Shown one piece after another: positions 4,552-26,449 of a stretch of 35,657 bases of DNA. The translations under genes were made by a program, and so were the position numbers. Source of the DNA: a virus (taxonomy: Duplodnaviria > Heunggongvirae > Uroviricota > Caudoviricetes); the IMG/VR virus record IMGVR_UViG_2740892433_000005, positions 1-35,657 of that record. One strand, 5' to 3'. The notes under the pieces are model-generated. The model saw nothing but the letters and a program-made list of their open reading frames with translations. It searched no databases and was not told the origin of the DNA. Within the stretch, counting starts at the first letter, position 1, and each line of letters starts with the position of its first letter.

Positions 4552-5435
4552 CACACACTCCTCGTCAGTATTCTGGCGGCCATTGCACTTAATCCCGGAG
4601 ACATGCGGTTGAATGCTGTTCCGACGGCGTTAAGCTGCCCGGAAACGGTATCCAGAGCACCTGCAATATTTCTTTTGTCCACACCACTCAGCGCAGACTG
4701 TGCCTGCTGTACATACGTGGCTGCTTCGCTGGCTGTTCTGGCCAGACTGATGGCATCGGGCATGGATTCAGAGAGTGCGTTAAACGCCGGAACACTTTTC
4801 CCCAGAGCCCCGGAGATATTACCCAGTCCGCTCATCAGCCCCGGCACACGGGTCAGTGCGACAACGGGGTTATCCTTCATTTTCTGTGTCACTCGAACGG
4901 CGCTGATAGTGGTCTGGAGTACAGACTGCGCCTGTTTCGCATAGTTGACGCCGTTGCGGATGAACTGCGCCACCCCGGAAGGTGAAGGAATGGCACCGGA
5001 GACCGCCCCGACACCCGGGAGCTTCGTGCGTATTGCCGGTGGTTGCAGAGGATTTTTCGGGTCACCGGTGTATTCCCGGAGAGACACGGTGGCACTGACA
5101 GCCAGCACGTTGCCGGTACTGTCAGTCTGCTCGCTGGTTGCAGTCACATCGGTAATCACGAACCAGCCGCGATAGTCACCGTTGCCGAAGACCAGCGCCA
5201 GTGCCTGATGGGCTTTCATGGCTGTTCGCAGTCTCGCCAGCTCCACATCGGGTACACAATAATGCTGATGGAAAACCAGAGTTATCTGGATTTCGTCCAG
5301 CCTGTCGCCGACGAACTGCAGGCCAGGCTTACCCCCGATGCGGGCATGCTCCGCATAATCGACGCCGAACGTGGCCTCGAAGCCGTCCCAGTAGGTAATC
5401 AGCTCAAACTCAATATCACCCAGTACGGCAAACAT
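4551..5435 (-). CDS. tail protein with P2 gpU-like / Mu N (DNA circulation) N-terminal region
   Basis: 294-aa ORF immediately downstream of the tape measure gene; N-terminal segment (..RIGGKPGLQFVGDRLDEIQITLVF..) resembles gpU-type tail proteins as I remember them. Confidence 0.45.
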   Translation of the reverse strand: MFAVLGDIEFELITYWDGFEATFGVDYAEHARIGGKPGLQFVGDRLDEIQITLVFHQHYCVPDVELARLRTAMKAHQALALVFGNGDYRGWFVITDVTATSEQTDSTGNVLAVSATVSLREYTGDPKNPLQPPAIRTKLPGVGAVSGAIPSPSGVAQFIRNGVNYAKQAQSVLQTTISAVRVTQKMKDNPVVALTRVPGLMSGLGNISGALGKSVPAFNALSESMPDAISLARTASEAATYVQQAQSALSGVDKRNIAGALDTVSGQLNAVGTAFNRMSPGLSAMAARILTRSV

Positions 5436-23636: not shown

Positions 23637-23740
23637 GCATCACAAATACGGGGCGCGAAGGATTTTAAAGCGCGTTAAGAGAGCCGGGGATACGGGATGC
23701 GCAGAATAAACGATGAATTATTCACAGAGGAGAATACGAT

Positions 23741-24484
23741 ATGACGCACACACTGAATCCGGTCATCACTGTCACTGTGTCCGGTCCTGTGGGCAGCGGT
23801 AAAAGTTACGTACTGGCGCGGATAGAAGAGATGGTGAAACAGGAACTCGGAAACAGCGTCATTGTCGATGCTGCTGACGTGGAGAATGAGCGCCGTATGA
23901 GTGGCGATGATCTGACGACCTGGCAGAAGCCACGGGGTGGCACAGTGATCAGGCTGGAGGAATACACGGGACAGGGCCTGTTGTCATACGGCGAGGAGCG
24001 TATCTGTCGGACGAATGAGCTGCTGGATGTTATATGCCCCGCGGGCCGGCAACCCTGGATACTGCCCGATGCACTGCATGCCACCATTGCGGCACTGATG
24101 ACAGTTTACGATCAGGAACTGCTCATGAAGGAGTTACGTAAACTCACCGGTCAGCCAACAGAATGTTTTTCGGCCCCGAAGTACGGGAAGCAGGAACACA
24201 TCCCGGTGAACACAATCCCCGTTAACCAGCCTCCCCGGTTCTTCGACGAATACATTCTGACACCGGAAAATAAAGCTGAGCATGAAGAGATCAAAGAGGC
24301 GTTGTTCCGGGAAATCAGGAAGATTGCTGAAATGCAACTGGGGGGCGGGCTGGACAGAGTGATGGCGAGAGGAGAATGGGAGTCGCTGTTTGAAAGAGTT
24401 TCCCCGGAATTACTGCCCCTCGCACTGGCTATCGGGATTATGCAGACAGCAGATAAACCTCACTTACGTTCATCAAACACGTAG
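23741..24484 (+). CDS. P-loop (Walker A GPVGSGKS) protein of unknown function
   Basis: 247-aa ORF, GAGGAG 8 nt upstream of ATG; Walker A-type motif at residues 15-22; no further family assignment possible by eye. Confidence 0.45.
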   Translation: MTHTLNPVITVTVSGPVGSGKSYVLARIEEMVKQELGNSVIVDAADVENERRMSGDDLTTWQKPRGGTVIRLEEYTGQGLLSYGEERICRTNELLDVICPAGRQPWILPDALHATIAALMTVYDQELLMKELRKLTGQPTECFSAPKYGKQEHIPVNTIPVNQPPRFFDEYILTPENKAEHEEIKEALFREIRKIAEMQLGGGLDRVMARGEWESLFERVSPELLPLALAIGIMQTADKPHLRSSNT

Positions 24485-24537
24485 CGCAGAATATTTTGCC
24501 GGTGAGTACATAAAAATCATCATTTAAGGAGTGCATC

Positions 24538-24762
24538 ATGAATCCCCGATTAACGTTAACAGAACATCAGCGCCGTGCCGAAGCAGTGAACAATGTTCTG
24601 GAAGATATTATCCGGTTACATCGCGGAGAACTGAGTGTCTGTCGTGCTACTGTTCATTTTCAGGAAATACAAAAGCAGTTCGATACTTCTGTTTTTGCAG
24701 AAGGGATCACTTATGCCCTGGACCAGATAAAGGCAGAAAATCGCTCCCCGGATAATCCCTAA
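24538..24762 (+). CDS. small hypothetical protein
   Basis: 74-aa ORF with strong TAAGGAG RBS 7 nt upstream of ATG, 53 nt downstream of the P-loop gene. Confidence 0.4.
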   Translation: MNPRLTLTEHQRRAEAVNNVLEDIIRLHRGELSVCRATVHFQEIQKQFDTSVFAEGITYALDQIKAENRSPDNP

Positions 24763-24811
24763 ACCACATTAACAGAAATCCCGCCATCCCTGCCGCATCA
24801 TGAAAGAACGA

Positions 24812-24839
24812 CCAGCCCGGAACCCGAAATCCGGGCTGG
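24812..24839 (+). other. 10-bp-stem hairpin in the leader upstream of the methyltransferase gene
   Basis: ccagcccgga / tccgggctgg perfect inverted repeat with 8-nt loop; not followed by a U-tract on the plus strand. Confidence 0.4.
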
Positions 24840-24944
24840 CCATCGTCCCACAGGAATGCACTGTGAGCCGACCGAGGTTCAGTCAGTCTCGCGAGACCAG
24901 ACTAGCCTGCCATATTTTTAGTAATTGTAAAAGGCTTACAGATT

Positions 24945-25709
24945 ATGAAAATGCAGACATTACCCATCGTTCCATGGATTGGTGGCAAACGCCGCCTTGC
25001 AAAACACATTCTGCCGCTGTTTCCGGCGCATGAATGTTATGTGGAGCCGTTTTGTGGGGCAGCAGCGCTCTATTTTCTTAAGACACCCGGCAAGATCGAA
25101 GTCATTAATGATATCAACGGTGAACTGGTGAATCTGTACCGGGTGGTAAAGCATCACCTGGAAGAATTTGTCCGCCAGTTCAAATGGGCGCTGGTCAGCC
25201 GTCAGATCTACAAATGGCTGCAGATCACCCCGGAAGAAACACTGACGGATATCCAGCGTGCGGCACGGTTCTACTACCTTCAGAAGCAGGCGTTTGGCGG
25301 CAAGGTGGCAGAGCACAGCTTCGGTACCTCCACCACATCCCCGCCACGCTTCAACCTGCTGCGTATTGAAGAAGAACTGTCAACAGCACACCTGCGGCTT
25401 TCCAGAACAGTCATAGAACACATGGACTGGCAACAGTGCATTGAGCGTTATGATCGTCCGCACACACTGTTCTACTGCGACCCACCGTACCTGGGTACGG
25501 AAGGCTATGGTGTGGATTTTCCTGAAGGGAACTACTCGCGGCTGGCAGAGCTGGCCCGGTGCATCAGAGGAAAAATGATAATTTCGGTGAACGATATCCC
25601 ACAGATGCGCGAGGTGTTCACTGGACTGAACATACAGACAGTGAACATCAACTACAGTCTGGCGGGGAAACCCACGCCGCGCCGTGAACTGGTAATCTGC
25701 AACTTCTGA
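24945..25709 (+). CDS. DNA N6-adenine methyltransferase, Dam (D12) class
   Basis: Motif I ..VEPFCGAAALYF.. and motif IV ..YCDPPYLGTEGY.. in the order typical of Dam-family enzymes; N-terminal ..PWIGGKRRL.. resembles the Dam N-terminus; 254 aa. Confidence 0.8.
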   Translation: MKMQTLPIVPWIGGKRRLAKHILPLFPAHECYVEPFCGAAALYFLKTPGKIEVINDINGELVNLYRVVKHHLEEFVRQFKWALVSRQIYKWLQITPEETLTDIQRAARFYYLQKQAFGGKVAEHSFGTSTTSPPRFNLLRIEEELSTAHLRLSRTVIEHMDWQQCIERYDRPHTLFYCDPPYLGTEGYGVDFPEGNYSRLAELARCIRGKMIISVNDIPQMREVFTGLNIQTVNINYSLAGKPTPRRELVICNF

Positions 25710-25715
25710 GACAAA

Positions 25716-25740
25716 ACCGGAAAGCACAATGCTTTCCGGT
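25716..25740 (-). terminator. intrinsic terminator-like hairpin between methyltransferase and repressor genes
   Basis: accggaaagca / tgctttccggt 11-bp perfect stem with a short loop; on the minus strand followed by UUUGUCUC; lies ~85 nt downstream of the repressor stop and 7 nt after the methyltransferase stop. Confidence 0.5.
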
Positions 25741-25825
25741 AAACCAGACGATTTCTGCCATGCTACTGACGGCGCTTTCTGAAAGCGTCCAGATCAACCA
25801 CCTGTCCTTTGTGTCCGGGTCAGTA

Positions 25826-26179
25826 TCAGCCTGCGATTTTTCCTGGTTTTGGCTGAGTATAGAATCGCCCAATCTCAAGAAATGAGCGTTGTTGGTCTGG
25901 TGTCATGTTGTCAAAAGTATCTATTAATTTTTGTTTTTCGGGGGATATCCGGTTCTGAATTTCCACCTCACCATCTGTGCTCATACCCGTAAGAATGAAG
26001 GCAACATCTACTCCTGCGGCTCCTAAAACTACCAGTTTATCTAGCGGGATATTTCCTTTTTCCATCCAGTTATAAATCGTCGCCCGCGAGATACCAGTGG
26101 ACTTAGATACCGCCAAAGGACCAACACGTTTTAATTCTGAAATGAGACGCGCATGTATTTTTTCTAAATTAATGGACAT
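25826..26179 (-). CDS. prophage repressor (XRE-family HTH)
   Basis: ORF track 25826..26401; chosen start is the in-frame ATG at 26179 (MSINLEKIH..) because the longer form would read through the operator region and the Ner-like gene start; HTH ..VSKSTGISRATIYNWMEKG.. and ..VDVAFILTG.. helix typical of XRE/CI-type repressors; divergent from the early operon; visibly AT-rich. Confidence 0.65.
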   Translation of the reverse strand: MSINLEKIHARLISELKRVGPLAVSKSTGISRATIYNWMEKGNIPLDKLVVLGAAGVDVAFILTGMSTDGEVEIQNRISPEKQKLIDTFDNMTPDQQRSFLEIGRFYTQPKPGKIAG

Positions 26180-26184
26180 AAAAC

Positions 26185-26213
26185 TTGCTCTGTCTAAATT
26201 TTTAGACAATAAT
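26185..26213 (+). promoter_or_regulatory. candidate early promoter with operator palindrome in the spacer
   Basis: TTGCTC (26185-26190), 17-nt spacer, AATAAT (26208-26213); the spacer contains the perfect 16-bp palindrome GTCTAAATTTTTAGAC (26192-26207); a related half-site tctaaatt occurs at 26164-26171. Confidence 0.45.
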
Positions 26214-26260
26214 CTATCACACATAACGCAAACATCATTGCACCAAACAAGGAGACAACA

Positions 26261-26449
26261 ATGACTGCAGACCAGGTCAAAGCTCATTTCCGTCGCAATG
26301 GGATCACTTTTACCCAGTGGGCAAAACAGAACAACTACACCAGAGCGGAGGTTTACCGCGTACTGAATGGCCAGGTAAAAGCGAACTACGGCAAAGCCCA
26401 TGAAATCGCTGTAAAGCTGGGATTAAAAACCATCACTGACGCTGCTTAA
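26261..26449 (+). CDS. small DNA-binding regulator, Ner/Cro-like by position
   Basis: 62-aa ORF, AAGGAG 6 nt upstream of ATG; first rightward gene divergent from the repressor; no confident family match by eye. Confidence 0.45.
   Translation: MTADQVKAHFRRNGITFTQWAKQNNYTRAEVYRVLNGQVKANYGKAHEIAVKLGLKTITDAA

Follow-up and report, generated by a model that had tools for sequence, protein, structure and literature searches.

Does the hairpin that lies upstream of the dam gene of this phage belong to the dam mRNA or to some other element? In the window (the whole 35,657-nt stretch of viral DNA analyzed here), 182 nt separate the stop codon of a 74-amino-acid (74-aa) open reading frame (ORF) at 24762 from the dam ATG at 24945. 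The preliminary description had pointed to a hairpin in this gap, and it is real: ccagcccgga (24812-24821) and tccgggctgg (24830-24839) form a perfect 10-bp stem around the 8-nt loop acccgaaa. By hand arithmetic, 182 nt would be expected to contain about 0.001 perfect, short-looped inverted repeats of 10 bp by chance. It had also been observed correctly that no T-run stands 3' of the stem on the plus strand, so the U tract of a Rho-independent terminator is missing there, and that the ribosome-binding site of dam is weak, with AAGG, about 10 nt 5' of the ATG, as its sole Shine-Dalgarno-like element. RefSeq annotates the gene as a DNA adenine methylase, and GATC, the Dam site, does not occur within 24709-25093. 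When the gap region was folded as RNA, it beat shuffled sequences on either strand (z = -3.96 on the plus strand and -3.71 on the minus strand; 200 shuffles per comparison, 0 of 200 as good). The gap also holds two mechanically called ORFs, one of 77 aa on the plus strand (24800-25033) and one of 30 aa on the minus strand (24769-24861). Their reading frames are not conserved, and we rejected them as coding because loop indels of 1 to 5 nt break the frames in relatives.

Comparison with relatives assigns the structure to the minus strand. On that strand, G·U pairs lengthen the stem to 12 to 15 bp. Among 35 close variants, 99.8% of the pair cells pair on the minus strand versus 87% on the plus strand, G·U cells number 163 versus 2, and RNAalifold gives -51.7 versus -30.2 kcal/mol. 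A broad alignment of 64 sequences, drawn from Enterobacterales, Betaproteobacteria, and methylotrophs and so from three proteobacterial classes, has compensatory changes in 33 of its 36 base pairs, as counted, like most pair counts given here, in alignments fitted to the covariance model. In it, 93.6% of the cells are paired, compared with 70.8% in shuffles (0 of 500 reached the observed value), and pairing falls to 26 to 53% when the partners are slid. Cells that are G·U on one strand only number 310 for the minus strand and 57 for the plus strand. An independent MAFFT and RNAalifold analysis of 27 diverse sequences recovered helices J, P2, and P3 and had compensatory changes in 22 of its 31 pairs. 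Secondary structure on the strand antisense to dam is conserved by covariation, and the hairpin is most likely part of a structured minus-strand RNA, not a stand-alone feature of the methylase leader.

This RNA, of about 100 to 120 nt, folds into a 5' hairpin (P1) and a three-way junction of helices J, P2, and P3 (Table 1). The hairpin would be helix P3 of a small structured RNA encoded divergently from dam, within a reading (a sense/antisense switch, set out below) that as a whole we hold to be probable. Covariance-model searches found a single copy of the element in the window, scoring 144.3 bits (E = 1.6e-39) with model R1 and 110.1 bits (E = 1.6e-31) with model R2. In the broad alignment, all 12 pairs of P3 have changed on both sides and 92.6% of the P3 cells are paired. 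Its apical pair, A-U, becomes C-G or U-A in relatives, and the remaining variants are G·U on the minus strand. Every cell of J is paired, with compensatory changes in three of the four pairs (GAAC/GUUC, AGAGC/GCUCU, CAGGGC/GCCCUG, and GGAAGC/GCUUCC). Pairing in P2 reaches 97.7% in the top and 91.3% at the base; wobble cells there are minus only in 158 cases and plus only in 4, and one P2 pair is U·G in 45 of 63 sequences. The P1 inner stem has both-side changes in five of five pairs. Hammerhead, tRNA-like, and attC-like readings of the junction were rejected by eye, given its single 4-nt linker and the absence of the conserved cores.

Table 1. Features of the dam control region and of the predicted minus-strand RNA (positions in the window)
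Feature	Position	Strand	Remarks
dam, D12-class N6-adenine DNA methyltransferase, 254 aa	24945-25709	+	Pfam PF02086, E = 5e-29; PHROG 56
Anti-Shine-Dalgarno arm CUGUGAGCC	24861-24869	+	Leader of the dam mRNA; complementary to the P2 5' arm
Masked initiation region GGCUUACAG	24933-24941	+	GG of the AAGG Shine-Dalgarno plus spacer
Extended -10-like element TGGCAGGCT	24904-24912	-	Predicted promoter; hexamer CAGGCT at 24909-24904
-35-like TTTACA	24926-24931	-	16-nt spacing to the downstream -10; overlap with the complement of the region of the dam Shine-Dalgarno
Full covariance-model match	24922-24801	-	Takes in about 20-25 nt of promoter-proximal sequence on the 5' side
Predicted small RNA transcript, ~100 nt	24797-24898	-	Both ends predicted: start ~24897, end ~24797-24805
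P1, 5'-terminal hairpin GGUCU-CGCG-AGACU	24885-24898	-	Inner stem 94.6% paired
P1 core, perfect 12-bp DNA palindrome GTCTCGCGAGAC	24886-24897		
Possible P1 outer stem	24900-24903 with 24881-24884	-	
J helix, 5' strand GAAC	24877-24880	-	Partner GUUC 24806-24809; closes the three-way junction
J helix, 3' strand GUUC	24806-24809	-	Partner GAAC 24877-24880
P2 hairpin	24842-24872	-	Base GUCG/CGAU, top CUCACAG/CUGUGGG, hypervariable 6-7-nt loop
P3 hairpin, 12 bp	24810-24841	-	Reported stem extended by a G·U and a G-C pair
P3 core (hairpin first reported)	24812-24839	-	Perfect 10-bp stem, 8-nt loop
3' tail UUUCAUGAU	24797-24805	-	U/pyrimidine-rich

Some properties of P1 would also suit an element that works as DNA, namely, a protein-binding operator, a cruciform, or a recombination site. 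Perfect P1 palindromes of at least 10 bp, center included, are present in 43 of 63 members, their sequences being many, different, and lineage specific, and the P1 outer stem has no strand preference. The element also lies between divergent genes, at a mosaic junction. However, the loops of P2, P3, and J are hypervariable in length and the stem sequences change, with G·U cells in these three helices biased 253 to 37 toward one strand. Such a one-strand bias is expected for an RNA and not for a duplex DNA site. Furthermore, palindromic protein sites keep their sequence instead of covarying. This makes a DNA-level element a very improbable explanation for the structure. P1 is a partial case, because its palindrome could be a protein-binding site instead of, or besides, forming an RNA hairpin. 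One possibility is that the RNA or the palindromic P1 also binds a protein, perhaps the methylase itself. The predicted RNA start sits within the outer part of P1, which would leave the outer complementarity unexplained.

The small-RNA promoter was called by consensus match only, as a TGnTAnnnT-like element. A (T/C)ANNNT hexamer ends 12 to 15 nt before the center of the P1 palindrome in 48 of 49 family members (TAGGCT in 16, TAGAAT in 16, CAGGCT in 5, and other forms), and TG stands at -15/-14 in 18. The predicted start was placed 7 nt after this hexamer. The -35-like element was read directly from the sequence and counts as weak evidence, being conserved solely within Enterobacterales. A generic promoter scan picked a different, weaker minus-strand site, TTTTCA-16-TACAAT (24951-24924). 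We rejected this site, which is not conserved in KP12-type relatives (TGCAAT, TACTGT); the extended -10 is better conserved. The 3' end was predicted from three properties: the 3' strand of J must be transcribed, the tail is rich in U or pyrimidines, and conservation ends there. Within the tail, GUUCUUUCA is invariant in 38 enterobacterial variants, and relatives have CUGUCUUUUUC-type tails. The U-rich tails that follow the J strand are better in relatives than in Escherichia coli, where the sequence past the stem (CUUUCAUGAU) makes a poor terminator tail and went uncalled in a terminator scan.

Could the hairpin be merely an intrinsic terminator for minus-strand antisense or read-through transcripts from the repressor side? 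Its GC-rich stem is followed by UCGUUCUUUCA on the minus strand, conservation ends exactly past that tail, and the tails of relatives are more U-rich, all as such a terminator would have it. However, the repressor gene owns a strong terminator (25740-25716). The closing helix J of the covarying junction uses bases that follow the stem, which a simple terminator would not need, and about 60 nt upstream of the hairpin are nearly invariant. We therefore regard a simple terminator as quite unlikely.

We looked at the distribution of the RNA in two samples, one of 80 loci picked by Dam homology and one of 56 loci picked by the RNA pattern alone. In the Dam-anchored sample, the RNA is divergent from a D12-class adenine methylase gene at 75 of 80 loci, always on the strand opposite to dam and with its 5' end about 0 to 34 nt from the first ORF. 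In the RNA-anchored sample, a methylase gene is alongside at 53 of 56 loci (50 dam genes and 3 very distant D12-like genes), and three copies have no adjoining methylase gene. There was no match to the RNA in BcepMu, a phage without dam, or in the right-end segments of Mu and B3. Among complete E. coli genomes, about 10% have the RNA; it is also present in prophages of Enterobacterales, Burkholderiales, Neisseriales, Nitrosomonadales, and methylotrophs. Of the E. coli lysogens, SCU-105 is 100% identical and ABU 83972 is 97% identical. Searches against Rfam 15 gave no relevant match at gathering score for the whole window and 14 divergent relatives, and only noise for 24700-25000 at an E-value cutoff of 10. 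A literature search for the RNA, its sequence, or antisense control of prophage methylases found no description. The RNA is widely conserved and seemingly undescribed.

The translation start of dam is predicted to be sequestered in mRNA structure. A 9-bp helix, 24861-24869/24933-24941, is present in both the minimum-energy and the centroid folds of the plus strand (z = -4.75). The mean energy of the masking duplex is -13.4 kcal/mol for cognate targets, compared with -6.6 when the targets are shuffled and -4.7 to -8.3 when other segments of the leader are taken. The helix is kept with compensatory changes between lineages (CUGUGAGCC:GGCUUACAG, CUGCAAGUC:GGCUUGCAG, GCCAGUGAA..GGCC:GGCUUUCACAAUGGC, and CGUAGGC:GCCUACG). 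The plus-strand version of the helix is stronger than its minus-strand version in 34 of 50 lineage pairs, and this advantage is modest (-13.4 versus -11.7 kcal/mol; p = 0.002, for sequences that are not independent). An alternative mask, AGCCU:AGGCU, was rejected because it is not conserved. The wobbles of P2 make its hairpin stable on the minus strand and mismatched on the plus strand, which would leave the plus-strand arm free to mask the start. The plus-strand masking helix would also imply that the dam leader is transcribed. In Enterobacterales, CATATT (24911-24916) could serve as a proximal plus-strand promoter of dam; we rejected it, as GC-rich lineages have no room or signal for it.

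The preliminary description had drawn an analogy to the com-mom operon of Mu, in which the upstream 74-aa protein would bind the hairpin in the plus-strand dam leader and so allow dam translation. The general idea survives in part, in that the start region appears to be controlled by RNA structure and the locus is related to com-mom-type modules, but its specifics fail. The hairpin can form on the plus strand too, the dam ribosome-binding site is weak and predicted to be masked, and com-dam operons occur in relatives. However, where stem variants keep a G·U pair on the minus strand, the plus strand has a C·A mismatch, which argues against the hairpin as an element of the dam mRNA, and it is a different helix that is predicted to mask the start. 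The 74-aa protein does lack a zinc finger, as had been said, with no Pfam match and no paired (zinc-ribbon) cysteines. Its ORF is also unlinked to the element. Homology with Klebsiella phage KP12 and many other relatives starts exactly at 24801, past the tail of the RNA, and the genes upstream of that point differ and are often on the other strand. Most relatives that retain the hairpin and dam are without the 74-aa ORF, which is variable cargo and not a Com analogue. A true Com homologue (zinc-ribbon, PF10122) was found at 10 of 70 related genome loci. Its gene lies not on the 74-aa ORF's side of the element but between the RNA and dam, and at these loci the masked start belongs to com. The window has no com and no ORF between the element and dam. 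Judged from these sequences, the comparative data appear largely to refute control by the 74-aa protein, which we consider extremely improbable.

A different question is whether the minus-strand RNA acts on dam at all. It might be real and yet be a trans-acting or protein-binding RNA, or a leader, insulator, or antitermination element of the late operon, with its linkage to dam explained by co-inheritance of a mobile module. Mu-like enterobacterial relatives have the RNA immediately before the holin-lysis-structural operon and in the same orientation. The stems and the junction are highly conserved without a conserved single-stranded seed, as in protein-binding RNAs, and the three copies without a methylase neighbor fit the same explanation. 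However, of nine inspected loci outside Enterobacterales, eight have the RNA and the upstream late genes in convergent orientation, with no same-strand gene after the RNA. The interval between the RNA and holin has a conserved promoter-like motif of its own, TTAACGC-N3-TTTAAAAT. Therefore, a late-operon leader or put-like antiterminator was rejected as a general explanation; the same-orientation layout was seen only in Mu-like Enterobacterales. In the window, 1.2 kb of opposite-strand cargo intervenes between the RNA and the late operon. Furthermore, the RNA keeps a fixed spot by the first ORF of the methylase module across very different prophage backbones, and does so by the second, very distant methylase family as well. 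Its P2 arm is complementary to the start region of that first ORF, with covariation. A role apart from dam, together with linkage by co-inheritance, is in our judgment unlikely.

The reading that we prefer, and think probable, is that the two RNAs form a sense/antisense switch that gates a potentially harmful or toxic methylase, or a com-dam operon in some relatives. The computed basis of this switch is the hairpin, the covarying minus-strand fold, the association with methylase genes, and the masking helix of the plus strand; from these, we infer that the small RNA is transcribed, where it begins and ends, where the dam mRNA originates, and what the regulatory outcome is. The small RNA would be transcribed from the extended -10 promoter at 24912-24904, start at about 24897, pass through P1 and the J/P2/P3 junction, and end in the U-rich tail at about 24800. 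It would be antisense to the long 5' leader of a dam mRNA that most likely arises by read-through from upstream genes. Within this leader, the complement of the P2 5' arm (24861-24869) would pair with the dam Shine-Dalgarno and spacer (24933-24941), and the ribosome-binding site would therefore be masked by default.

As to the sign of the switch, we tentatively favor activation, in which the antisense RNA invades the leader and frees the ribosome-binding site, making it an RNA counterpart of Com. The P2 5' arm, GGCUCACAG, is a near-copy of the masked site, GGCUUACAG, and would capture the anti-Shine-Dalgarno arm by perfect pairing. Cleavage by RNase III would be optional. The opposite sign is conceivable but rather doubtful: the RNA might silence or degrade read-through dam mRNA in lysogens. 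We are similarly hesitant about a broader reading, in which one DNA encodes two functional RNAs, one per strand, that are kept different by wobbles. The wobble positions would be G·U on the minus strand, where they allow a stable small RNA with a three-way junction, and C·A on the plus strand, where the arm stays open and masks the ribosome-binding site. Acting as an RNA Com, the small RNA would unlock methylases or com-dam operons by strand displacement.

If the prediction is true, this is an unannotated, widespread RNA family, and its support from covariation is unusually strong. It would account for the way in which prophages restrain an orphan adenine methylase, which bears on anti-restriction, host epigenetics, and mutation rates, and it would connect the com-mom paradigm of Mu with a layer of control by RNA. 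It would also be a clean, testable case in which selection has given the two strands of one DNA sequence different folds. The covariance model can be used to annotate such loci and to correct mis-called dam starts.

Several structured RNAs are familiar from comparable places. The D12-methyl motif is found beside D12-class methylase genes, and the C4/P4 CI antisense RNAs and HK022 put occur in phage or prophage control regions. The RNA described here matched no Rfam 15 model, the D12-methyl motif, C4, and put included, and its orientation is antisense to the methylase gene.

In Mu, Com opens an mRNA structure that conceals the mom start (PMC3299994, PMC3378877), and Com-methylase pairs are known in FluMu, Pnm1, and B3 (PMC3299994). 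The dam locus resembles com-mom in that a DNA-modification gene of a transposable phage, harmful if misexpressed, has its start predicted to be hidden in mRNA structure, and relatives of the window's module have a true Com homologue directly upstream of dam. However, the window has no com, and its enzyme is a D12 adenine methylase (PF02086), not Mom, which has an acyltransferase fold. The predicted mask is a long-range helix about 65 nt away and not a local stem. Unlike the right-end segments of Mu and B3, this locus also has a conserved structured RNA on the opposite strand. Mu has a divergent promoter, momP2, that overlaps Pmom (PMC3378877). The promoter predicted here is likewise divergent over the control region of a modification operon and could compete. 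Unlike momP2, it would drive a conserved, covarying structured RNA. To our knowledge, no comparable RNA product has been described for momP2.

Cis-antisense RNAs that act on structured leaders include those of hok/sok, the IncI/IncB repZ-Inc RNA system, R1 CopA/CopT, and IS10 RNA-OUT. As in those systems, the RNA proposed here would be a short, stable, structured antisense opposite the leader of a gene that is harmful if overexpressed, with ribosome access governed by long-range leader pairing and with loops free to vary because complementarity is automatic. It differs from them in its fold, a three-way junction plus a 5' hairpin, and in its target, a phage orphan methylase or com. There is also no leader peptide, and the predicted overlap excludes the Shine-Dalgarno sequence itself. 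For the activation that we tentatively favor, the closer parallel is the anti-antisense activation of rpoS by DsrA, RprA, and ArcZ, which are trans-encoded, Hfq dependent, and only partially paired with their target. There too, an upstream complementary arm closes the ribosome-binding site, which could be opened by an RNA that is complementary to the arm. Unlike DsrA, RprA, and ArcZ, the RNA of the window would be cis-encoded and fully complementary to its target, and activation would be one of two possible outcomes.

The preliminary description had placed a perfect 10-bp stem with an 8-nt loop in the 182-nt gap before dam, with no plus-strand T-run after it, and had read the dam Shine-Dalgarno sequence as a weak AAGG. 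All of this is exact. The region also folded far better than shuffles on both strands (z = -3.96 and -3.71). The hairpin is genuine, and chance would hardly produce it. The window is a transposable E. coli prophage of the BcepMu-like type (Bcepmuvirus). It matches E. coli SCU-105 with 100% identity over 24500-25100 and phage PhiKM with 95% identity over 23700-25800. A 601-bp stretch around the hairpin is present in 556 of 5426 complete E. coli genomes.

Features of the methylase module and its surroundings (window positions)
Feature	Position	Strand	Remark
Holin-lysis-structural operon	leftwards from 23608	minus	
Motif CTCTTAACGCGCTTTAAAATCC	23660-23681	minus	~50 nt upstream of holin ATG (23608)
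247-aa P-loop ORF, then 74-aa ORF	23741-24762	plus	PHROG 3787, PHROG 4490; beyond holin operon, before dam
P3	24812-24821/24830-24839	minus	the reported hairpin
P2		minus	loop hypervariable
J		minus	closing helix GAAC/GUUC
P1		minus	hairpin; sole variable base is a bulge
P1 core	24886-24897		
Mask, leader arm CUGUGAGCC	24861-24869	plus	complement of P2 5' arm
Extended -10-like TGGCAGGCT	24912-24904	minus	TTTACA 16 nt upstream
Mask, start arm GGCUUACAG	24933-24941	plus	Shine-Dalgarno GG and spacer
dam, D12-class methylase	24945-25709	plus	
Repressor terminator	25716-25740	minus	11-bp hairpin and T-run
Repressor gene	25826-26401 (mechanical ORF)	minus	after dam
Ner-like, transposase, remaining early genes	beyond repressor	plus	

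The leader travels with dam. The homology that Klebsiella phage KP12 and phage Phi06_2974 B share with the window runs from exactly 24801, just left of the hairpin, through dam; the upstream gene is unrelated to the window's, and the KP12 annotation puts it on the other strand. Forty-eight IMG/VR contigs share a 22-nt leader core. To its left they carry the 247/74-aa pair, a minus-strand ORF of either 134 aa or 188 to 193 aa, or holin; to its right they always carry dam. Therefore, the element belongs to dam, and the 74-aa ORF, previously proposed as the hairpin's partner, is interchangeable cargo. The two cargo ORFs sit in a mosaic hot spot flanked by the RNA and the probable late promoter; in relatives this site holds one of the same minus-strand ORFs or is empty. 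The motif found upstream of holin, TTAACGC-N3-TTTAAAAT, also occurs 35 to 50 nt past the RNA 3' end in cargo-less relatives and is probably the late (lysis operon) promoter or an activator site. On the other side, dam lacks a plus-strand terminator of its own and converges on that of the repressor gene. The mechanical repressor ORF has 191 aa, versus 117 aa in the RefSeq annotation (25826-26179; AlpA/CI-like HTH), and the longer frame would overlap the start region of the Ner-like gene. GATC occurs 98 times in the whole window, versus 139.6 +/- 12.1 expected from shuffles, and is absent from 24709-25093.

The conserved fold is on the minus strand. Across 38 distinct variants, stem changes such as CCAGCCCGG/CCGGACUGG or CCAGGCUGG give G·U pairs on the minus strand and C·A mismatches on the plus strand, and extra G·U and A-U pairs lengthen the stem on the minus strand only. 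RNAalifold gave -51.7 kcal/mol (41 pairs) for the minus strand versus -30.2 kcal/mol (29 pairs) for the plus strand. A trimmed alignment with 35 distinct sequences had 99.8% of its pair cells paired on the minus strand versus 87% on the plus strand, and 163 versus 2 G·U cells. The consensus has four helices (P1, J, P2, and P3); an invariant GUUCUUUCA follows P3, and then conservation stops entirely.

We built two covariance models, R1 from close leader variants and a broader R2, and searched 80 loci chosen solely by Dam protein similarity, one genome per species. These spanned Trabulsiella, Pantoea, Photorhabdus, Xenorhabdus, Serratia, Citrobacter, Burkholderia, Paraburkholderia, Chromobacterium, Iodobacter, Nitrosomonas, Methylophaga, and a Francisella MAG. 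Between them, the models detected the RNA at 75 of these loci; in every case it lay on the other strand from dam, its 5' side abutting the module's first ORF. In a 64-sequence alignment fitted to the covariance model, 33 of 36 pairs had compensatory changes. Paired cells reached 93.6%, versus 70.8% after shuffling (0 of 500 as high) and 26 to 53% with slid partners. Minus-only wobbles numbered 310 versus 57 plus-only, and those in P2 and J were nearly all minus. Because this alignment was fitted to the model, we also ran MAFFT and RNAalifold on 27 diverse sequences. This independent run again gave J (up to 8 bp), P2, and P3, and 22 of its 31 pairs were compensatory. Rfam 15 had no family matching the RNA in the window or 14 divergent relatives, and literature searches, including with the sequence itself, did not find it. 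It appears to be part of a widespread and so far undescribed sense/antisense RNA module that accompanies prophage adenine methylases.

Linkage was also examined from the RNA side, using a P2 pattern in IMG/VR and then R2. Among 56 RNA copies whose flanking DNA was long enough, a dam homologue was divergently adjacent in 50. In 3 more, the neighbor was a D12-like DPPY methylase only remotely similar to the window's Dam (26% local identity; Pfam 21.9 bits versus a cutoff of 22), as adjoins the RNA in L165 (11767-12773), L175, and L192. The other three had no methylase. At L210, the RNA (4844-4965) adjoins a 679-aa tail-fiber-like ORF with no methylase, and none is near L221 or the weak hit L152. 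In Pantoea stewartii (L056, 2954-2978), the element upstream of dam is reduced to its first ~19 nt. The RNA was not found in phage BcepMu, which has no dam at this position, or in the Mu and B3 right-end segments searched. In cargo-less Mu-like Enterobacterales, the RNA is followed by the holin operon in the same orientation. Eight of the 9 loci inspected outside the Enterobacterales instead have the RNA and the tail or lysis genes in convergent orientation, with dam as the last prophage gene. The methylase module is the RNA's only constant partner.

A (T/C)ANNNT hexamer (TAGGCT, TAGAAT, the window's CAGGCT, and others) ends 12 to 15 nt ahead of the P1 palindrome center in 48 of 49 members, 18 of the 48 with an extended -10 TG. 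Its position predicts an RNA start near 24897, at the P1 core edge. The J helix means that the RNA must extend beyond P3. The tail past J is U or pyrimidine rich; the E. coli version is weak as a terminator tail and was not called by a terminator scan. The end, like the start, is a prediction. PhiKM dam is annotated 90 nt longer than the window's (L003, 3913-4767), in an upstream frame opened by a 1-nt T insertion that would cross the predicted small-RNA promoter; this is probably a miscalled start. In 43 of 63 members, the P1 core together with its loop forms a perfect DNA palindrome, with ~17 different sequences and lineage-specific cores (TCGCGA, CTCGAG, ATCGAT, CCGG, GTGCAC, GTCGAC, and GGTACC). 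This palindromy is beyond explanation by RNA folding alone. The outer stem of P1, within which the predicted start falls, favors neither strand. P1 may have a DNA-level role, for example as an operator at +1 to +14.

On the plus strand, the fold of 24801-24950 (z = -4.75) pairs the P2 5' arm complement with the dam ribosome-binding site. This mask is the best leader:start duplex in nearly all lineages, and both sides change in step: CUGCAAGUC:GGCUUGCAG in Iodobacter and Chromobacterium, GCCAGUGAA..GGCC:GGCUUUCACAAUGGC in Burkholderia, CCAGUGAAUUAGCC:GGCAAUUCAUUUAUGG in Paraburkholderia, and CGUAGGC:GCCUACG and GGUGAGC:GCUCACC in others. The mean cognate duplex was -13.4 kcal/mol, versus -6.6 with shuffled starts, -9.7 with noncognate starts, and -4.7 to -8.3 for other leader segments. 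The helix was stronger on the plus than the minus strand in 34 of 50 cases. We therefore infer that the dam mRNA carries the leader, with its ribosome-binding site masked. The conserved P2 wobbles make sense in this light: P2 is stable in the minus RNA and its mirror image is weak in the plus RNA, leaving the arm free to close the start.

Computation establishes the minus-strand fold, its linkage to the methylase, and the mask; a transcribed small RNA, a read-through dam mRNA, and the regulatory effect are inferred. In GC-rich relatives, the predicted small-RNA promoter lies only 25 to 37 nt from the start codon, and this interval contains nothing promoter-like. Therefore, all dam or com mRNAs probably have long, masked leaders, presumably originating by read-through, and an opener is needed. 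The sole conserved candidate would be the antisense RNA, whose P2 5' arm would mimic the masked site and pair perfectly with the masking arm. These two features lead us to favor, tentatively, activation by strand displacement. Somewhat less probably, the antisense RNA would instead silence leaky read-through transcripts in lysogens; functions unrelated to dam take up what likelihood remains.

The preliminary description had likened the leader to com-mom. The idea of mom-like translational gating holds up; the strand assigned to the hairpin and the 74-aa partner do not. In 10 of 70 genome loci (L095, L103, L106, L084, L078, L124, L073, L088, L086, and L087), from Paludibacterium, Aquitalea, Methylophaga, Gallionella, Methylobacter, Methylomicrobium, and Methylomonas, a 52- to 64-aa ORF lies between the RNA and dam. 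All 10 ORFs have a CxxC...CxxC zinc-ribbon signature, and the four scanned all match PF10122 as Mu Com homologues (E = 1e-14 to 5e-17). In L095, the one example read, the masked start is that of com. Because these functions are harmful, Mu-like phages subject mom, Hia5-type methylases, or a dam-like gene to control by Com (PMC3299994), and Mu Pmom is overlapped by a divergent promoter, momP2 (PMC3378877). Both fit the module described here. The E. coli module is thus a member, lacking com, of a com/dam family with an added conserved RNA layer.
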